Shown here piece after piece: positions 3,854-37,326 of a stretch of 38,569 nucleotides of DNA. The notes beneath the pieces are model-generated. The model saw only the letters and a list, made by a program, of their open reading frames with translations, searched no databases and had not been told where the DNA came from. The stretch is from a virus. Taxonomy: Duplodnaviria; Caudoviricetes. How positions within the stretch are numbered: position 1 is the first letter of the stretch; every line of letters starts with the position of its first letter. The stretch lies in IMG/VR virus record IMGVR_UViG_3300027265_000007, positions 1-38,569 of that record; one strand, 5' to 3'. Position numbers and translations under genes: made by a program.

Positions 3854-3876
3854 GCTGGTTCCCACCTTCCCGTGTG

Positions 3877-4860
3877 CTATGCCTTCCCAGGCGTTACCGT
3901 GAACCGCTCAGACGGGTTGTGGCTGGTGTGACGTGCCACCACGTCAGGCACTTCAGCCGTGATCCCGTCCAGGTCAACCTTCTTCTTCGGGAAGCGTGAC
4001 CAGTTGCAGGTGGCGGTTCCCACCTTGACCTTGGCCGCTTCGCCCATCAGGGCCTTCAGGTTGGACTTGGCCCGATCCTTCAGGGCCTTGCCGTTCGCTT
4101 CGGTCTGATGACCTTCCAGGTACTCCGTTGCCCATCGTACAGCTTCGGCATCGTCGGACAAGTCCAGGACAGCATCCTTGTTGGCGTTGGGGAACATGGC
4201 CAGCAGGGCCGACGCTTCATCACTGTGGCCGGTCAGGTCGGGCATCCGGTTGGTCACAACCAGGTCCCAGAATCGGCCTTCCAGTTCGGCCAGGGCGGCC
4301 CCCAACTCGGCGTCCCGCATGATGGTGTAGTACCGGTCATCCTGGCCGCCGATCAGCACGGCCACATCGAAGAAGTCAAAGCGCGTGACTTCCAGGTAGT
4401 GCTGGACCTGAAGCTGGTAGTGATCGGGCACCCCATCATCGGCCCCGTCTTCGCCCCAGGTCTGGCCAGGGAAGAAGCCAGCGGTCTTGATTTCCAGGCC
4501 GCCCCGCCCACGCTCAGGGCAGGTCACCAGCCGGTCAAGGGTTGCCAGCATGAACGGGTATTCCTTGGACCGCAGGACGGCGGATTCCCGCCTGACCTTC
4601 ACGGACGGGTTCCGCTTGGCGTACTCGGCGGCCAGGACCGGTTCAAGGATGTTGCCCCACCGGACGGCTGCCACATCGGATATGTCTTCCGGTTCGGTTG
4701 CGCCGGTCTTCTCCATCCACAACTGAAGCGGGGACTTCCACGGGCTCAGGCCAGCCACCACGGGGGCGTCCGATCCGCCCACGCCGGTCTTCCTGATCTC
4801 CAACCAGTGGGCTTCATCCTTGACCTTCAGACGGTCAAAGGGTGTTGGTGCAGTTGCCAT
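3877..4860 (-). CDS. YqaJ-like viral recombination exonuclease
   Basis: WLEIRKTGVGGSD, SPWKSPLQLW.EKTG, WGNILEP, LATLDR, GLEIKT, YQLQVQHY. Adjacent to recT. Start moved to 4860 on RBS spacing. Confidence 0.93.
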   Translation of the reverse strand: MATAPTPFDRLKVKDEAHWLEIRKTGVGGSDAPVVAGLSPWKSPLQLWMEKTGATEPEDISDVAAVRWGNILEPVLAAEYAKRNPSVKVRRESAVLRSKEYPFMLATLDRLVTCPERGRGGLEIKTAGFFPGQTWGEDGADDGVPDHYQLQVQHYLEVTRFDFFDVAVLIGGQDDRYYTIMRDAELGAALAELEGRFWDLVVTNRMPDLTGHSDEASALLAMFPNANKDAVLDLSDDAEAVRWATEYLEGHQTEANGKALKDRAKSNLKALMGEAAKVKVGTATCNWSRFPKKKVDLDGITAEVPDVVARHTSHNPSERFTVTPGKA

Positions 4861-4884
4861 CGTGCTTCCCACCTTCCCAGGGCT

Positions 4885-5097: not shown

Positions 5098-5164
5098 TTG
5101 CGTTCACCCCCTTCCCAGGTTGGTTGTTGCGCTCAGTTGGATGATACACAGAACCACATGAAAG

Positions 5165-5300
5165 CGGAAGCCCCGTCAGTCACAGCCTACAGCCCTTCGG
5201 CTTACGGCTTCCCTGACGGGGCAACCTGGACGCTACCTGGGAAGGTGGGCCAGACTCGGGGGCCTGGAACCGGCGTCAGGGGTAGTGTACCCCACCTTCC
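5165..5300 (-). ncRNA. putative structured sRNA or leader switch carrying the anti-RBS sequence CCCACCUUCCCAGGU
   Basis: Non-coding gap with nested inverted repeats (5170-5179/5213-5222, 5211-5218/5274-5281, 5240-5249/5291-5300) and a sequence complementary to the shared RBS of several genes. Function is inferred. Confidence 0.4.
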
Positions 5301-5311
5301 TGTCATTCGTT

Positions 5312-5689
5312 CTACTGTGCAGCTAGGTCCGTGGAAGGCGTCTGGTCAACGTAAGTGACCCCATCGTCCATCATGGCCCTGGCCGTTCTCAGGATGGTGT
5401 CCCAGTAGGTCATCCGGTCCAGGTCTTCCCTTGCTTCCTTCATCAGATGCTTGGCGTCCCTGATCCTGGTTCGGGCCCCACGGGCAAGGCCGCTGGTTGC
5501 ATCGTCAACCAGGCTGTCAATGACCACCTGTTGGGCCATGGACAGTTCCTTCATGCTGTCCATCCGGAAGTCACTGATTCGGGTGATGGCCAGGCCCACC
5601 ACGTCTGACAGGTCCCACTGGTGAATGACCGTGCTGTGGTCTTCGATGATCCGCTCAATGGCTTCCACGGTGTAGTGGTCATGCTTCAT
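5312..5689 (-). CDS. hypothetical protein (125 aa, helical)
   Basis: RBS GAAGGGGG upstream; second gene of the early unit. Confidence 0.75.
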   Translation of the reverse strand: MKHDHYTVEAIERIIEDHSTVIHQWDLSDVVGLAITRISDFRMDSMKELSMAQQVVIDSLVDDATSGLARGARTRIRDAKHLMKEAREDLDRMTYWDTILRTARAMMDDGVTYVDQTPSTDLAAQ

Positions 5690-5692
5690 GGT

Positions 5693-6004
5693 CTACCGGC
5701 CCCCTTCGTAGCAGGACTTCGTGAATGTCAGACCGTCATCAGCGGCTTCAGGGTCTTCCGCCGTGGGACAGTCCATGCCCATGCTGAAGGCCGAACAGGT
5801 GTCTGCCTCCGTGCAGCAGTTCGGCCATGACAGCGGTTGTGACTGGTCTTCGGATTCCTTGGCACTGAAGGCCACGGCACCGGTCAAGAACTTTGCCCCC
5901 TGACTTATCGCCTGGTCAGCGTCAGCCGCTTCAACACAGACGGTCCCCAGATAGCCGTCTTCGAACAGGGCTGACTTGGAATACCCATTGACGCCGTATC
6001 GCAT
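5693..6004 (-). CDS. hypothetical acidic, Cys-containing protein; first gene after the early promoter
   Basis: Start moved to MRYGVNG (6004) behind GGGAAGGTGGG. The track's TTG start at 6073 is the -35 hexamer. Confidence 0.75.
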   Translation of the reverse strand: MRYGVNGYSKSALFEDGYLGTVCVEAADADQAISQGAKFLTGAVAFSAKESEDQSQPLSWPNCCTEADTCSAFSMGMDCPTAEDPEAADDGLTFTKSCYEGGR

Positions 6005-6043
6005 AGTGCCCACCTTCCCAGTGGTAGAACGATTCGTCTGCAC

Positions 6044-6073
6044 AGTATCTTCCCAGTGGACTGTGTGTGTCAA
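6044..6073 (-). promoter_or_regulatory. sigma70/SigA-type early promoter
   Basis: TTGACA (6073-6068), 18 nt spacer, GATACT (6049-6044), just downstream of a terminator hairpin. Confidence 0.7.
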
Positions 6074-14121: not shown

Positions 14122-14138
14122 CCGTTGTTGCACTGTGG
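14103..14138 (-). promoter_or_regulatory. candidate phage late promoter (copy upstream of tail chaperone)
   Basis: CCACAGTGCAAC-N18-TACGGT, with TGn extension; same spacing as the copies at 22556 and 31145. Confidence 0.55.
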
Positions 14139-14147
14139 ACACGGGCC

Positions 14148-14730: not shown

Positions 14731-15132
14731 TCAGTCAGGGGTGGCTACTACCACCATGTTCAGCACATACTCCTGCCGCCCCTGGCTGTCTTCACCGATG
14801 GGGGTAGGCGTGGCCGATGCCGTGGGCACGGTCAGGTAGACCTTGCCGCCTTGGCTGATGTGTCGGCCAACGCCATCAGGGAAGAACAGGGCGTGAATCG
14901 CCCAGGCAGCCGTCTTGGCGGCCTGAACACCCTTGGCCCTGACCGTCACTTGAACGGTTCGGGCCAGGTCCGGAAGCCCACTGAAGGCGGAAGCCGCCCC
15001 AGTGTCTGTCAGCCACACAGCCTTGTCAGGCGTTGGGGGCCGCTTGTCCAGGAACACGTCCTGGGCCAAGGCCGTGAAGCCGATCCCTGCATCCACCACG
15101 AAGGTGGCTAGGTCCCTTGTCATTTCGGCCAT
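14731..15132 (-). CDS. tail terminator/tail completion protein (minor capsid 3-like)
   Basis: PPTPDKAVWL.DTG, VQVTVRA, PIGEDSQGR..YVLN; upstream of the tail tube gene. Confidence 0.75.
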   Translation of the reverse strand: MAEMTRDLATFVVDAGIGFTALAQDVFLDKRPPTPDKAVWLTDTGAASAFSGLPDLARTVQVTVRAKGVQAAKTAAWAIHALFFPDGVGRHISQGGKVYLTVPTASATPTPIGEDSQGRQEYVLNMVVVATPD

Positions 15133-20473: not shown

Positions 20474-22518
20474 TAGATGTTCTCACGCTTGATGAAGGCG
20501 ATTCCCAGGGAAGACTGGTAGGCGTTCGTGTACGGGTCCCCGCCGAACGGCTGGCAGCTGTTGACCGGTGCCAGACCGGCAGCATGGGCCTGGGTCCACG
20601 GGGTGGTTTCCAGGGTGGTAGTACCGGCTGCATCACTCAGGATGAAGCGGACTTCCTTGGCCCCAGCGTTGTCCCTGGTTTCCATGGCTAACTGGTAGTA
20701 GGTGCCAGCGGCCAGCAGCTTGCCAGCTGTGGTCATGGCACCGTCAGAGTTGGTGAAGGTGTGGGTTGTGAAGTCGTAGAAGTTGGTCCCGTTGCTGATG
20801 CTCAGGTACAGGTTGGCCGGTGACCAGCCGTAGTACACCCAGGCACGGGCCATCATCAGCACGTTGGGGTTCACGGGAACGCCGGTGCCGCTGTCCCCAC
20901 ACTGGGGGTCACCGGCGTTGGTCTTCCAGTTGCCCAGGACGGCCATGGTGGATTCCGCCACCCATCCACTCGCCAGGGCTTCAGGCGTGAACTTGACGGT
21001 GATCCGCTCAGGCGTGGCGAATCCGGTGGCCGTCTTCCCGAACCACAGGGCACCACGGTTGTCAGACCCGTAGGACGTGACCTTCAGCCTGTTGGGGCTG
21101 GTGGTGGTGGCCGCTGATCCGCTGTTGGCCACTGACGTTCCCAGCCATGTGGTGTCCAGGGCCTGTCCCGCTGCAAAGTCGTTCAGCTTGAGCGTGGCTG
21201 CCGTGGTAGTGAACTGGGCGGACGTGCTGATGACCAGGTGGCTGTGGGCATCGTCCACACGAACGTGGGCGTAGTAAGCCGTACCGGCAGCCAGGCCGCT
21301 GATGCTGACACCGGCAGCCATGGTAGCGTGGGTCCGGTCAGCGTATCCGGACCAGTCGGCGGGTGGCGTGGCAGACGTTGTGACAGCCACCTTGTACGTC
21401 AGGGTGTCCCCGTCAGTGTCTGTGGCGGCTGCCGTGACGGTGGCGGCTGACTGGGATATGCCACTGACCGTGGAAGCCGTGCTGAATGTCGGTGCCACGT
21501 TGGCCGCCGATGTGGTGAACTGCACCGCCGAAGACGTGACCACGTTTCCGTGGGTGTCGGACAGCCGCACATACAGGTCATATTGCGTCCCCGCCGTCAG
21601 TGAACCAACGGTCTGGGGGCTGGCAAAGGCGGGGGCACCGGTCCAGTTCGGGGTGGCACCACGGGCCATCACTCGATAGGTTGCCGTGATCCCGTCGCCT
21701 TCCGGATCGGTGTAGGTGGCCGTGACCGTGGCACCCGTCTGGGTGATGCCGGTCACGGACGGACCCGCCCCGAAGGTAGGCGGAAGGTTGATGGCAGATG
21801 ACGGTGTGGCGGTCTGCATCTGGCTGACCACCTTGTTGCCGGTTGCGTCAGTCAGCTGCACCCACGCATAGGCGGCCACGCCGTTGGTGCCTACATACCA
21901 CTCATCACCATCGAAGGCGGCAGCAGCGTTCCAGTCAGACGTTGTGGGGGCCGTGGTGTTGGCCTTGACGATGGCCTTGGCCGTGACGGCTTCACCGTCG
22001 CCACCAGACGCCCAGACGGCTTCCAGGTGCAGCTGGCCGTCCCCACCGGTCAGGACCGGTCCGGTGCTGAAGACCGGCTGGGTGTCAGTGAACACGTCAT
22101 CCACCACGTCCGTGGGAATCCGGAAGGTCACGGTGGCGTCATCCATCGTCAGTGCCCCAGCAGGGGTGATGGCTTCGGCGGCTTTGACCCGTGGATTGGC
22201 CCAGAAGATGGTATTCCTGGCGTTGATCGGGCCCACCAGGTTCAGCGTCTGGCCCCACCCAGCCCATGCGCCTGGGGACCCGTTGCTGTCCGGTGCCAGG
22301 TTCCAACAGTCAGCCGATCCGCCGCTGACCTGGATGGGGAAGCTGCCGGTACGCTTCTTGGCGTTGACCGCCCTGACCGCCAACTTGATGGGCGTCCCTT
22401 CACGGTCAGCCCCGATCTGAAGGTCACCGTCAGTGATTGGGTTGTTGACAGTGACCAGGGACCCGTCCATGGCACCAGCCGTGGGGGTCCCGTTATAGAT
22501 GCTGATGTTGTCAGCCAT
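20473..22518 (-). CDS. fibronectin type III/Ig-like repeat virion protein (~681 aa)
   Basis: Start moved to MADNISIY (22518) behind GGGAAGG. Three ~95 aa repeats (P.F...SV.GI.Q..ATVTA..TD..GD...Y, GL.AGT.Y...VR..D.H) and a beta-rich C-terminal domain. Confidence 0.8.
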   Translation of the reverse strand: MADNISIYNGTPTAGAMDGSLVTVNNPITDGDLQIGADREGTPIKLAVRAVNAKKRTGSFPIQVSGGSADCWNLAPDSNGSPGAWAGWGQTLNLVGPINARNTIFWANPRVKAAEAITPAGALTMDDATVTFRIPTDVVDDVFTDTQPVFSTGPVLTGGDGQLHLEAVWASGGDGEAVTAKAIVKANTTAPTTSDWNAAAAFDGDEWYVGTNGVAAYAWVQLTDATGNKVVSQMQTATPSSAINLPPTFGAGPSVTGITQTGATVTATYTDPEGDGITATYRVMARGATPNWTGAPAFASPQTVGSLTAGTQYDLYVRLSDTHGNVVTSSAVQFTTSAANVAPTFSTASTVSGISQSAATVTAAATDTDGDTLTYKVAVTTSATPPADWSGYADRTHATMAAGVSISGLAAGTAYYAHVRVDDAHSHLVISTSAQFTTTAATLKLNDFAAGQALDTTWLGTSVANSGSAATTTSPNRLKVTSYGSDNRGALWFGKTATGFATPERITVKFTPEALASGWVAESTMAVLGNWKTNAGDPQCGDSGTGVPVNPNVLMMARAWVYYGWSPANLYLSISNGTNFYDFTTHTFTNSDGAMTTAGKLLAAGTYYQLAMETRDNAGAKEVRFILSDAAGTTTLETTPWTQAHAAGLAPVNSCQPFGGDPYTNAYQSSLGIAFIKRENI

Positions 22519-22555: not shown

Positions 22556-22592
22556 AGTCTATGGCGGCCCACCGGCGTTGCTGCACTGTGCT
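22556..22592 (-). promoter_or_regulatory. candidate phage late promoter (copy upstream of the FN3 gene)
   Basis: AGCACAGTGCAGC-N18-TAGACT. Confidence 0.6.
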
Positions 22593-24137: not shown

Positions 24138-24189
24138 GTGCTTTCACCTTCTTCCTTCTGATAGCGGGACGGCCCTGGGAAGGGCCAGT

Positions 24190-24927
24190 CTATTTGCCGT
24201 AATGGGCCCCAACGGCATCCTGAAGGCCAACCGGCTGACCGGCACCTGCACCAGCGGGGTTCCCGCCCGTGCCGATTCCGCCCGTGCCGCCCTGACCGCC
24301 AAGTGCGGCCTGTCCACCGAGTCCGCCCTGTCCCATGGCCCCCACCACAGGCTTCAGTGCTTCGATCTCAGTGGCCAGTTCTTCCTTCGTGGTGCCCTTC
24401 AGGGCCAGTACCGGTGCCAGGTCGGGGTTCAACTTGGCGTCCTTCAGGGCTTGCCGCCGCACGTCCAGCAGGGCCGATTCAGCCGCCTTCGTTTCCGCCT
24501 GGGTCAGCGTCTGAACACGCTCAGTGGCCTTGGCCAGAATGTCCTTCGGCGTGGGGGTGTCCCCAACTTCCAGACCCATGGTCTTGGCCAGCGTGGTCAG
24601 GGCTTCGGCAGCTTCAGCACCATCGGTGTTGTCTGCCTTGGCCTTCAGGGCGTCCAGGTCACCGTACTTGTCGGTGATGGATGCCAGGGCCGAACGCTTG
24701 GCCTGGGCCTTTGCGTCACGGATCAGGGCATCCATACTGGCCTGGCTCATGGTGACCACGCTCTGGCCACCACCACTTCCACCGGCTGACCCACCCTGGC
24801 CGCCGTCGCCGCCGTCAGGGTCCACATCGAAGCGGACACCGAACGGTGCAGCACCTTCGAACCCTAGACCGGCCAACAGGCCGCCACGGTTCTGGTGGTG
24901 CAGGTGGTGGAACAACTTGTGCTTCAT
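24190..24927 (-). CDS. capsid scaffolding protein
   Basis: Start moved to MKHKLF (24927). Gly-rich linker, TMSQASMDALI, KYGDLDALKAKA, helical body, Gly-rich tail ending LQDAVGAHY. Confidence 0.85.
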   Translation of the reverse strand: MKHKLFHHLHHQNRGGLLAGLGFEGAAPFGVRFDVDPDGGDGGQGGSAGGSGGGQSVVTMSQASMDALIRDAKAQAKRSALASITDKYGDLDALKAKADNTDGAEAAEALTTLAKTMGLEVGDTPTPKDILAKATERVQTLTQAETKAAESALLDVRRQALKDAKLNPDLAPVLALKGTTKEELATEIEALKPVVGAMGQGGLGGQAALGGQGGTGGIGTGGNPAGAGAGQPVGLQDAVGAHYGK

Positions 24928-24980: not shown

Positions 24981-25018
24981 AAGGTAGCATGACGCTACCT
25001 GTTGTCGCTCAGTGCAGC
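24981..25018 (-). promoter_or_regulatory. candidate late promoter with inverted motif, overlapping a terminator-like hairpin, upstream of scaffold/MCP
   Basis: GCTGCACTGAGC (reversed motif, 1 mismatch)-N20-TACCTT with TGn extension. Hairpin AGGTAGCG-tca-TGCTACCT plus T-run at 24978-25000. Confidence 0.45.
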
Positions 25019-31144: not shown

Positions 31145-31181
31145 TGTCTACATCAGGAACGCCGGTCCGCTGCACTGTGCT
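31145..31181 (-). promoter_or_regulatory. candidate phage late promoter (copy upstream of terS)
   Basis: AGCACAGTGCAGC-N18-TAGACA; the 13-mer is identical to the copy at 22580-22592. Confidence 0.6.
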
Positions 31182-31935: not shown

Positions 31936-31977
31936 GTCGCTTGTCCCTTCCCAGGTGGATGCTTGTGGGTGATTGTA

Positions 31978-32394: not shown

Positions 32395-32734
32395 TGTCCA
32401 CCGTCCGGTACTCGGCATAGCCGCCCACTTCGGCACGGGCCTGAAGTTCGGCCAGCAACTCAGCCGTGGTGGCCATGCCCAGGTTCGGGCCCATCTTCGC
32501 CACCATGCGTTCAATGGCGGCTTCCGCTTCGGTGGTGGCGTTCAGGCGATCGGCCACGGTCATGGCTTCGTCTTGAGTCCAGCCAGGCGTACCTTTGGCA
32601 GCGTACATCTGCCCGTCCTTGGTGACCCACCACAGACCATCAGCCCCGCCCTGTGACGGGCCCTTGGTTGCACAGTCATGGCAGTTGCAGAACACCACGC
32701 TGAACGGCCCTTGATTCGTCCCTGTCTCAGCCAT
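32387..32734 (-). CDS. hypothetical protein with CxCxxC motif
   Basis: RBS GGGAAGGAAG; overlaps both neighbours. Confidence 0.7.
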   Translation of the reverse strand: MAETGTNQGPFSVVFCNCHDCATKGPSQGGADGLWWVTKDGQMYAAKGTPGWTQDEAMTVADRLNATTEAEAAIERMVAKMGPNLGMATTAELLAELQARAEVGGYAEYRTVDNG

Positions 32735-32921
32735 CGTTCTTCCTTCCCAGTTGAATCTTCAGGTTCCGCCAATACAGGTGGCAGAACACCCAGACCTTGC
32801 CCATCCAGTTTACACGGGGCGGTTGGCTGTGCCAATCAATACACCAGGACGGCGGGAACGGTACGCCTGGCGTGGGTCCGTCCTTCCTGGCGTCCAGGGG
32901 TTCGATCATATCTGCCACCAC
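32727..32921 (-). CDS. hypothetical protein (64 aa)
   Basis: Fills the gap with short overlaps. Confidence 0.5.
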   Translation of the reverse strand: MVADMIEPLDARKDGPTPGVPFPPSWCIDWHSQPPRVNWMGKVWVFCHLYWRNLKIQLGRKNDG

Positions 32922-35623: not shown

Positions 35624-36001
35624 TCAGAATAGACCTTCCTGTGATCCATGCTTAGGCAGCACCAGCCGCCATTCCTTGTACCGCTTGCCCTGGGCTGTGG
35701 TCCACCGCTCATCGAACGTCCATCCCATGTGCTTCAGGTCACGGATGAAGTCACGGACGTGGACGCTGTTGGTGTAGGGCACCAGGTCCCATGTGGACCA
35801 CCAGGCAGCCGATCCCTGGGCGTGTGTGTCGATCACGGGCCCGTCCATCATGGCCTGAAGGACCTTGGCTGAATCGGTGCCAGGCTTGGGGCTGGTGCCA
35901 AGGCTTGGGGTCACCAGGTCAGCGGGATGCTCATGGCGTCCGGACGGGCTGGTGTCATGCGTGACCCAGGCGTGACAGGCTTTGCAGTAGGCATCAGCCA
36001 T
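35624..36001 (-). CDS. hypothetical protein (CxxC...H N-terminus, winged-helix-like C-terminus)
   Basis: CKAC; IRDLKHMGWTF...YKEWRL. Confidence 0.6.
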   Translation of the reverse strand: MADAYCKACHAWVTHDTSPSGRHEHPADLVTPSLGTSPKPGTDSAKVLQAMMDGPVIDTHAQGSAAWWSTWDLVPYTNSVHVRDFIRDLKHMGWTFDERWTTAQGKRYKEWRLVLPKHGSQEGLF

Positions 36002-36267: not shown

Positions 36268-36706
36268 TCTGGACGCCCTTCGGAATCTCGGGTGTCTCGC
36301 ACACAGCGGACGGCCCGTGTTCGATGCAGATGGGGCCGCCACAGACGCCTTCGATGCCGGTTGACCAGTGGCACAGCGTGTTCTTCGGATGGTCCACAGG
36401 CGTCATATCCACGCCCAGGACACGAAGGCACCACGCCAGGGCGTGGATCGGTTCGTGGTTCAGGTCACCGGCGTCCACAACCGCCTTGGCTGCCAGGACC
36501 AGTTCAGCCCACTGGGTCACGTTGCCTTCAGCCAGGTTCGGGGCGTTCTCACACGCCAGGTTGGCTGACGGAAGCCCAGTCAGGGCACTGGTCACGATCT
36601 CGGCGTCAATACCGCGAAGGTCACCGATGCTGAAACGCATACGGTCAATCAGCGGACGCTCAGTGTTGCTGTCGATCTTGAACGCCCAGTCCAGCGGTCT
36701 GTCCAT
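36260..36706 (-). CDS. hypothetical protein with C-terminal Cys/His cluster
   Basis: Start moved to MDRPLD behind GGGAAGGTGGG; CHW....CGGPICIEH. Confidence 0.7.
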   Translation of the reverse strand: MDRPLDWAFKIDSNTERPLIDRMRFSIGDLRGIDAEIVTSALTGLPSANLACENAPNLAEGNVTQWAELVLAAKAVVDAGDLNHEPIHALAWCLRVLGVDMTPVDHPKNTLCHWSTGIEGVCGGPICIEHGPSAVCETPEIPKGVQNG

Positions 36707-36760
36707 TGGTTCCCACCTTCCCGTGTGGTGACCGGCCCCTTGCCAGTCCACCTGATTGTG

Positions 36761-36973
36761 TCACCCATCCGTCTTGGACGCAACAACGAATGTCCAAGCG
36801 GGGTAGGCGGCCAGGAGTGTTCCAGGCGTCCGGTTGTCCGGACAGTCCAGGTGGACCGTCACGCCTTCGCCCTTCAGGATCAGGGTCTTGGTCTGGCCGT
36901 TCTCGGTCCACTCAGTGTGGATGCCAGCCAGGCGAAGGTCACCGGACGCCTTCAGGATCGGCCTGGGGCTCAT
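36761..36973 (-). CDS. hypothetical protein (70 aa)
   Basis: ATGA overlap; RBS GGGAAGG. Confidence 0.65.
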   Translation of the reverse strand: MSPRPILKASGDLRLAGIHTEWTENGQTKTLILKGEGVTVHLDCPDNRTPGTLLAAYPAWTFVVASKTDG

Positions 36974-37326
36974 TCGCCTTCCCTTTTACATGGGGGCTGC
37001 ACAATCTCACGGTACGGGCCGAATGACAGCATGGCGTAGCCGTCCTGAAGACCCCATCCGGTCAAGATGTGGGTGATGGTGCCTAAGCACTCACGTCCGG
37101 TGTAGTGACCATCCCTGGTACTGACACCACCACTCTGCAACGCCGGTGGCTTGTACTCACGAAGGTACAGCGTGTCACCCACCTTGAAGTCACGGTCCAT
37201 CTTCCTGACTTCAGCGGTCTTGGTGCCTTCGATGACAGCCTGGAAGTGTTCGGGCCACGTCTTCAGTTCATGGACCGCAGGTGCCGAGTTATCCACAGTT
37301 TCCACAGTATCCACAAGGTTTCCCAT
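36970..37326 (-). CDS. DUF3850/ASCH (PUA-like) domain protein
   Basis: HELKTWPEHFQAVIEGTKTAEVRKMDRDFKVGDTLYLREY, YTGR, ITHIL, GYAMLS. Confidence 0.9.
   Translation of the reverse strand: MGNLVDTVETVDNSAPAVHELKTWPEHFQAVIEGTKTAEVRKMDRDFKVGDTLYLREYKPPALQSGGVSTRDGHYTGRECLGTITHILTGWGLQDGYAMLSFGPYREIVQPPCKREGE

Follow-up and report, generated by a model that had tools for sequence, protein, structure and literature searches.

Among described systems, the closest to the locus analyzed here are the start-associated sequences (SAS), which were described in cluster K mycobacteriophages by Pope et al. 2011 (PMC3203893) and precede non-structural genes. In four K1 phages, one reversed SAS copy was reported away from gene starts, and the sections of that work dealing with it leave open whether the motif is bound by an RNA or by a protein (PMC3203893). 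Passages of later papers still call the role of SAS unknown (PMC11373665, PMC12699233, PMC7302621, PMC12859693), SAS-like motifs have been described in Microbacterium cluster EF (PMC7302621, PMC12859693), and late transcription in phage Adephagia appears to begin in the 92-93 gap (PMC11373665). The initial annotation of our locus, which stated that no described system with this layout was known, therefore has to be amended, given that many start tags together with one reversed copy were already in print for K1 phages, without a function (PMC3203893).

The second group of relevant systems consists of base-pairing RNAs. The c4 RNA of P1/P7 and sar of P22 block translation of phage mRNAs near the ribosome-binding site via pairing loops, StxS of Stx phages acts in trans by base pairing on stx1AB and on host rpoS under lysogeny, and, as described in the relevant parts of the source, these three RNAs act on one or two messages each (PMC12197685). 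In trans-encoded bacterial small RNAs (sRNAs), one short seed serves many mRNAs through occlusion of the ribosome site (PMC12197685). By title and start of abstract, the literature searched, with most subscription journals outside its coverage, yielded no phage RNA that represses a tagged set of its own phage's genes.

Here we analyze a viral DNA record (IMGVR_UViG_3300027265_000007; the whole linear stretch of 38,569 bases is referred to below as the window) with an estimated completeness of 58% and a GC content of about 62%, in which a tag at the ribosome-binding sites of non-structural genes is matched by a complementary word, the seed or anti-tag, in a non-coding gap. This tag/anti-tag feature is real and far beyond chance. 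Our preferred reading, to which we assign a probability of about 0.55 on the strength of sequence and modelled folding, is that the gap encodes a late trans-acting antisense RNA that would repress early translation via the shared tag.

A tag before non-structural genes

All assignable genes of the window (Pfam and PHROGs families) are located on the minus strand, as are all tags, promoters and hairpins described below unless indicated otherwise. The order on this strand is small genes and methylase, terminase, portal, head, tail, lysis, two unknown genes and the gap, followed by a 70-aa gene, yqaJ, recT, a replication-initiator-like gene and an ATPase. The capsid protein is closest to those of Streptomyces phages (48%) and the endolysin to those of Bacillus-group phages (<37%); an ASCH/DUF3850 protein is encoded at 36970-37326. 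The 70-aa gene had been labelled HTH; for this label, the searches gave weak Atlas look-alikes, and Pfam and PHROGs returned no family.

The tag precedes the genes for an AAA/SMC-like ATPase (2246-2256), RecT (3861-3871) and the YqaJ exonuclease (4868-4881), the 70-aa gene at 5097-4885 (5110-5120), the gene at 6004-5693, which is the first one past a sigma-70-type promoter (6008-6021), the DNA methylase gene (31946-31956), and a gene of no family starting at 36706 (36712-36722). Perfect complementarity to the seed extends over 14 nt before yqaJ and the gene at 6004, and over 11 nt before the other five, so that all seven coordinates given in the initial annotation were reproduced; a shorter, 9-nt tag (32742-32750) precedes the gene starting at 32734. 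For the statistical comparison, the longest exact complement to the seed within 25 nt upstream was determined for 43 gene starts that were chosen by eye with ribosome sites in view, namely, 19 non-structural ones and 24 from the structural/lysis block, a set that leaves out several small right-arm ORFs. A complement of at least 10 nt was found at 7 of the 19 non-structural starts compared to none of the 24 structural ones (Fisher p = 0.0016). The longest complement was at most 7 nt at each of the 24 structural starts; the initial annotation had noted a shorter GAAGG-type core in the structural ribosome-binding sites it considered. CTGGGAAGG occurs 9 times vs. 0.72 expected, a count not reached in any of 100 shuffles.

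The exact 11-mer of the tag occurs six times in the genome. Five copies are on the coding strand, each followed by an ATG after 4-7 nt, and the sixth is the reversed one at 5239-5249; two further 11-nt variants stand 9-12 nt before an ATG. Hence the motif is not equally frequent in both orientations away from start codons; an equal frequency was what the initial annotation had named as contradicting a regulatory RNA. The same distribution bears on the possibility that the tag is a DNA operator bound by a phage repressor in either orientation, the reversed copy being one more site beside a promoter. Such a reading could draw on an 11-nt piece of the leader of the gene at 6004 that is directly repeated (6014-6024 and 6049-6059), which places part of a tag inside the sigma-70-type promoter, and on the inverted pair that the gap copies form around a −10 element (5240-5256 and 5284-5300). 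However, the uniform placement of the five exact sense copies, with one copy reversed, and the location of several tags inside operons rather than at promoters make an operator very improbable.

The tags are predicted to form hairpins with a GGGA loop, and the upstream CT/AC and the hairpin form are common to them. In predicted folds, GGGA is unpaired (all four bases at 0.9 or above) in five of the seven tags vs. 2 of the 24 other GGGAAG sites. A 6-bp hairpin with a GGGA loop is also present at 3879-3894 (minus strand), where yqaJ ends and shortly before the recT tag, and is a possible second docking site. Upstream of the methylase tag, there is an extended −10 (TG-A-TACAAT, 31972-31977, minus strand), so that the methylase likely has its own promoter. 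Conceivably, the tag hairpin could be read by a phage or host translational-regulator protein, with the tag complement of the gap RNA competing or remodelling rather than repressing directly. The GGGA-loop hairpins, the ASCH/DUF3850 protein and the location of the tag of a related phage (see below), which stands apart from the Shine-Dalgarno by about 10 nt, would fit such a role. Yet an RNA sponge for a protein would present the tag in sense orientation instead of its complement. The CsrA-type sites have an A-N-G-G-A core, and by eye this core is found in one of the seven tags only. We consider a protein reader to be quite unlikely.

The tag itself is a good Shine-Dalgarno. It pairs with a typical 16S tail motif about as well as the capsid and tail-tube sites do. 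In the whole window, GAGG is avoided on both strands (18 seen vs. 99.7 expected), and GAGGT and AGGAGG are absent, so that the canonical Shine-Dalgarno core is hardly used. Restriction-type words are depleted on both strands as well (CGCG, 16 vs. 193 expected; GCGC, 48 vs. 215; CCCGG/CCGGG, 0 vs. 97), and many 6-bp palindromes are absent from the window, suggesting that the host possesses numerous restriction systems. In unrelated low-GC viral loci with capsid homologues (L040, L044 and L048), GAGG is nearly missing too (0-0.2 per kb).

A locus similar to the gap was not found in scans of viral contigs, metagenome and genomes using yqaJ, capsid, endolysin and DNA patterns, and blastn of the gap against 194 loci returned the copies in the window itself and three chance 17-mers only. 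Among later loci screened by tblastn and motif look-up, none covered the gap. Close relatives were found as proteins, for the 70-aa gene (80% and 69%), yqaJ (63%) and endolysin (69%); three such protein-level relatives probably belong to one syntenic contig. One relative, contig L335, contains homologues of four tail and lysis genes, arranged as in the window, and ends before the gap. Past its lysis genes, an extended −10 is followed by a first gene with the tag in a 7-bp leader hairpin; a separate Shine-Dalgarno stands about 10 nt farther downstream. The single tag base that differs within this stem has a matching substitution on the opposite arm, which amounts to one such pair in a single relative. 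In L335, GAGG is not avoided (37 vs. 37.3 expected), so that GAGG avoidance alone does not explain the tag.

These observations weigh on the null explanation, whereby the tag is no more than the strong ribosome site of this phage as shaped by GAGG avoidance, and its reversed copy arose by chance or is left over from an inverted gene start. GAGG depletion could alone standardise strong sites, and pairing with the 16S tail is like that of the capsid and tail-tube sites; however, the tag persists in L335 where GAGG is not avoided, its shared bases extend upstream of the Shine-Dalgarno core, and the reversed 11-mer, which is expected 0.03-0.05 times per strand under Markov models of orders 1-4 (0.001-0.002 times in 1500 nt of non-coding DNA; 0.002-0.005 for the reversed 13-mer), lies in a predicted RNA with a fold z of −3.9 behind the third-best promoter match of the genome. 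Chance or a relic is thus improbable.

The seed and its surroundings in the gap

The seed is located at 5235-5251, where, as initially annotated, the plus strand is the reverse complement of the antisense RNA word, and is predicted to form a 4-bp hairpin with a UCCC loop at 5242-5239; outside this loop the seed is predicted to be paired, which leaves four seed bases open. When every 17-nt word of the coding strand was compared to 42 starts, only words beginning at 5246-5256 matched at least four starts, with a maximum of seven. The runner-up anti-tag word, matching three starts, belongs to a hairpin in the capsid-gene leader (24168-24190), the only other UCCC-tetraloop hairpin on the coding strand, which is complementary over at least 10 nt to three tags. 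Thus, the antisense copy previously noticed upstream of the major capsid protein gene is real; in abundant late mRNA, it could add to the anti-tag pool, or else it could be a processing or stability hairpin. A plus-strand gene using the reversed seed copy as its ribosome site was rejected because no start codon follows.

Upstream of the seed, we identified a putative late promoter consisting of an upstream element (5309-5320), which shows 9 of 12 matches and overlaps the stop codon of the ORF 5689-5312, and, 19 nt farther, the putative −10 TACACT (5284-5289; 5 of 6 matches to TAGACT). Both the possible −10 and the degenerate late motif of the initial annotation are accordingly present. The motif was trained on two sites, before the small terminase gene (31145-31180) and before the gene starting at 22518 (22556-22591), that are its only exact occurrences (12-mer, 18-nt spacer, TAGAC; 0.01 expected for the 12-mer). 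Both precede late-side genes, and from this position we infer that they are late, activator-dependent promoters. The gap site is the third-best match on both strands of the genome (14/18), one match ahead of ten placements at 13/18, and has a spacer of 19 nt compared to 18 nt in both training sites.

Degenerate copies of the 12-mer at 14127-14141 and 25004-25018 (minus strand) were rejected as promoters, with −10-like hexamers that are sequestered in hairpins and background scores; both directly precede terminator-like hairpins, and the 25004 copy matches better on the opposite strand. A 15-bp palindromic operator form of the late motif was rejected as well: the five sites with at least 12 of 15 matches compare with a mean of 2.1 over 40 simulations, in which the maximum was also 5, and these very sites had supplied the consensus, so that the count lends no support.

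With the start set 7 nt after the −10, the predicted RNA comprises 115 nt (5163-5277), with both ends putative. Its 5′ multi-hairpin domain is closed at the predicted start, the first base opening the closing stem, and is followed by a long GC-rich hairpin. The minimum free energy (MFE) is −59.7 kcal/mol (z = −3.93), with none of 200 shuffles equally stable; for the whole gap, the fold z is −3.79. No RNA data set was listed as containing the locus, and contigs from two RNA-labelled runs showed no part of the gap, which speaks neither for nor against expression. In the window, Rfam yielded no matches at gathering score and ARAGORN none at all; two weak, unrelated Rfam matches (E = 0.16 and 0.78) fall outside the gap, which matches no covariance model of c4 or the other Rfam antisense RNA families. 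The terminator-like stem initially annotated at 5170-5222 exists, with a 10-bp GC-rich base, but it lacks a U-run and was not called by the terminator scan; by eye, other intergenic hairpins of this genome are equally U-poor.

Three features go beyond the initial annotation, namely, the hairpin form of seed and tags, pairing between the seed and a tag in cis, and a sense copy of the tag, or decoy, at 5290-5301. No start codon follows the decoy, which fills the spacer of the putative late promoter; in RNA that reads through the gap, it is predicted to fold onto the seed. Such RNA would come from the sigma-70-type promoter at 6044-6073 (TTGACA-18-GATACT), which is likely early. While the RNA ends at 5160 or before, the predicted decoy-seed pairing comprises about 9 bp, and it weakens binding of the seed to all seven tags by 4.3-5.2 kcal/mol, also in prediction; an RNA begun at 5277 does not include the decoy.

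Several other elements were observed in the same region. A 34-codon ORF (5202-5306, minus strand) starts 5 nt past the stop of the ORF 5689-5312 and crosses decoy and seed, with no ribosome site. CGTTCTAC is found in the leader after the early promoter (6024-6033), reversed at the stop of the ORF 5689-5312 (5305-5315), and upstream of the −10 in L335 (near 6400), and may be an operator or a second pairing site.

Predicted targets and the proposed switch

When the 115-nt RNA was cofolded with 42 leaders, the top five partners were all tagged genes, with energies from −27.3 to −15.0 kcal/mol: the gene at 6004, the strongest predicted target (−27.3), recT (−20.0), the 70-aa gene (−18.7), yqaJ (−17.6) and the gene at 36706 (−15.0), followed in sixth place by the gene at 32734 with its 9-nt tag. 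The ATPase (−10.5) and the methylase (−7.2), the weakest of the seven, ranked below the leaders of the tape-measure gene (−14.3), the gene at 35624, the portal gene (−13.1) and the gene at 15132. The initial annotation proposed a genome-wide duplex scan with the tagged ribosome-binding sites as the expected top hits. On the coding strand, the top three sites are indeed tags, but tags make up only 6 of the top 25, and the methylase tag is absent from these.

Five distant tags match the seed at a position where the seed has the U of the family and the tag of the adjacent 70-aa gene has G; thus, the seed follows the distant tags better than its cis neighbour. Such complementarity to separately encoded mRNAs at the ribosome site is a feature of trans-encoded base-pairing sRNAs.

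The main competing explanation has the gap acting in cis, as the 5′ leader of the operon comprising the 70-aa gene, yqaJ and recT. The seed would have two alternative partners, the sense copy, in which case the ribosome site stays accessible, and the tag at 5106-5120, in which case it is blocked; the state would be set by translation ending at 5312 or by the start site used. In modelled RNA running to 5100, pairing of the seed with this tag over about 13 bp gives an MFE of −109.9 kcal/mol vs. −99.6 kcal/mol for the decoy form, and it dominates every modelled RNA that reaches 5100. The stability of the whole-gap fold, the terminator without a U-run and the weakness of the separate promoter possible for the 70-aa gene, yqaJ and recT, a −10 (TATCAT) at 5141-5146 with no clear −35, all favour such a leader. 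Against it, the seed mismatches the tag of its neighbour and matches the five distant ones, the complementary runs reach 14 nt for the gene at 6004 and yqaJ vs. 11 nt for this neighbour, and the tags 26-31 kb away would be left without a reason; in addition, the possible −10 at 5141-5146, though weak, could supply the downstream genes with a message of their own. We regard a purely cis-acting switch as rather unlikely, and cis and trans roles may both hold.

For the preferred reading, a late RNA acting in trans, we envisage the following course of events. The tag stands at ribosome-binding distance before seven non-structural genes, and the structural genes have at most 7 nt of it. A phage activator, for which the HTH-containing ORF 38041-37430 is one candidate, would fire the promoter at 5320/5289 together with the terminase-side promoters, giving rise to an RNA that begins around 5277 and extends as far as the hairpin at 5170. 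The UCCC loop of this RNA is predicted to kiss the GGGA loops of the tags and to extend into an 11-14-bp duplex over the Shine-Dalgarno, and the open GGGA in five of the seven tags is in line with loop-loop kissing and subsequent strand exchange. Read-through RNA made early, starting at the 6073 promoter, would carry the seed with the sense copy folded onto it and would, for this reason, not silence itself, the sense copy being omitted by the late start. As the likely outcome, the recombination and replication genes and the methylase would be shut down as packaging begins.

The proposal of the initial annotation, that an RNA of about 110 nt shuts off the early genes through one common seed, is supported in part: the promoter rank, the match of the seed to the tag consensus, the top five cofolding partners and the strand bias of the tag all agree with it, whereas the ATPase and the methylase are predicted to bind no better than some structural leaders, and the cis fold is predicted to be the most stable one in read-through RNA.

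Comparison with SAS phages and with phage antisense RNAs

Sequences matching the cluster K late-leader gap occur in 186 mycobacteriophage records, and we examined this gap in 13 phages (7 chosen among the matches listed, 5 named in PMC12699233, and Adephagia). In six of these, Anaya, Adephagia, Tiri, Peanam, Validus and Amelie, the gap contains a reversed SAS with 1-2 mismatches; two (Ekdilam and Unicorn) have a pyrimidine-rich variant at the same place, and the late-leader gap of the remaining five (LeMond, Keshu, Pixie, Kratio and ZoeJ) lacks the reversed copy. In Anaya, the reversed SAS is located in a 385-bp non-coding gap, and in Adephagia, it occupies a hairpin loop of the 92-93 gap, with a conserved TAGACT about 95 nt upstream. 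The whole genomes of Pixie, Unicorn and Ekdilam contain no reversed SAS (exact 9-mer), that of AnnaSerena has 10 forward and 0 reversed copies with 2 mismatches allowed, and the one antisense copy in ZoeJ is the own tag of a leftward gene. Hence an anti-tag is a common, though not a universal, feature of SAS phages.

In a six-phage alignment, the anti-SAS is an unpaired loop on a long stem, and two-sided changes occur in 3 of the 30 predicted pairs, one of these in the anti-SAS stem, so that covariation is modest. The late-leader gap as a whole (L318:380-780, L314-L325 and L415) is a conserved multi-hairpin non-coding region with a terminator; TAGACT is invariant, with a palindrome just after it, in 12 of 12 aligned cluster K phages. 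The region corresponds to no Rfam family, and some records annotate an ORF across it. In Kratio, a reversed SAS is found elsewhere (L327, 790-845), around position 816 within the annotated 5′ part of gene 4, where it occupies the loop of a roughly 15-bp stem; this stem is long and perfect and lies between tRNA-Trp and the terminase gene, and the true start of gene 4 may be downstream of the annotated one.

The window and the SAS phages have in common an asymmetric G-rich motif in ribosome-site position before non-structural genes, in one orientation, with a single reversed copy, and the reversed copy is found in a hairpin loop downstream of TAGACT, the −10 hexamer of the putative late promoters of the window. 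The differences are that the motif has another sequence and 7-8 copies in the window vs. 11-19 for SAS, that the seed belongs to a short promoter-hairpin unit among early genes whereas the reversed SAS stands at the head of the late operon, and that the seed has a 4-nt loop and a sense decoy compared to an 11-nt loop in cluster K. SAS is described as conserved beyond 16S pairing; in the window, the upstream CT/AC and the hairpin form are what the tags share. The tag does not match the 13-bp cluster K consensus, and no ESAS-like 17-bp inverted repeats were seen by eye in the leaders. In sequence, the tag of the window falls outside the cluster K SAS family, but it repeats the SAS layout. The SAS phages are not relatives of the phage represented by the window, so that the parallel is evidence for this type of system and not for the element of the window itself.

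By analogy, we tentatively suggest, at somewhat less than even odds, that unrelated phages run the early-to-late switch by an RNA-only repressor, with hairpin-tagged early genes and a late RNA bearing the mirror loop, complemented here by a spacer decoy that would lock the seed in early transcripts, and that this is the missing function of SAS. If so, a question open since 2011 would gain a concrete answer, and silencing of bar-coded own genes by an RNA with one seed would represent a mode of temporal control absent from the literature searched. The phage of the window is uncultured, but Adephagia, which is cultured and for which RNA-seq exists, has the same layout with an 11-nt loop, so that the idea is open to direct testing. 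Should the decoy-in-promoter design be real, it would yield a regulator that is active from one start site only, and the tag/anti-tag pair could be put to use as a small orthogonal device that switches several genes together.

Compared to c4 and sar, which address one antirepressor message in the context of lysogeny and immunity, the RNA of the window would address seven unrelated tagged genes with one seed, late in the lytic cycle. StxS RNA arises from a phage late promoter. Like the predicted RNA of the window, it is short, linked to a late promoter and pairs in trans, but its targets are not tagged early genes. Compared to trans-encoded bacterial sRNAs, the predicted pairing is perfect over 11-14 nt, the targets are encoded in the same genome as the RNA, and they carry a shared tag that is identical in place to the Shine-Dalgarno.
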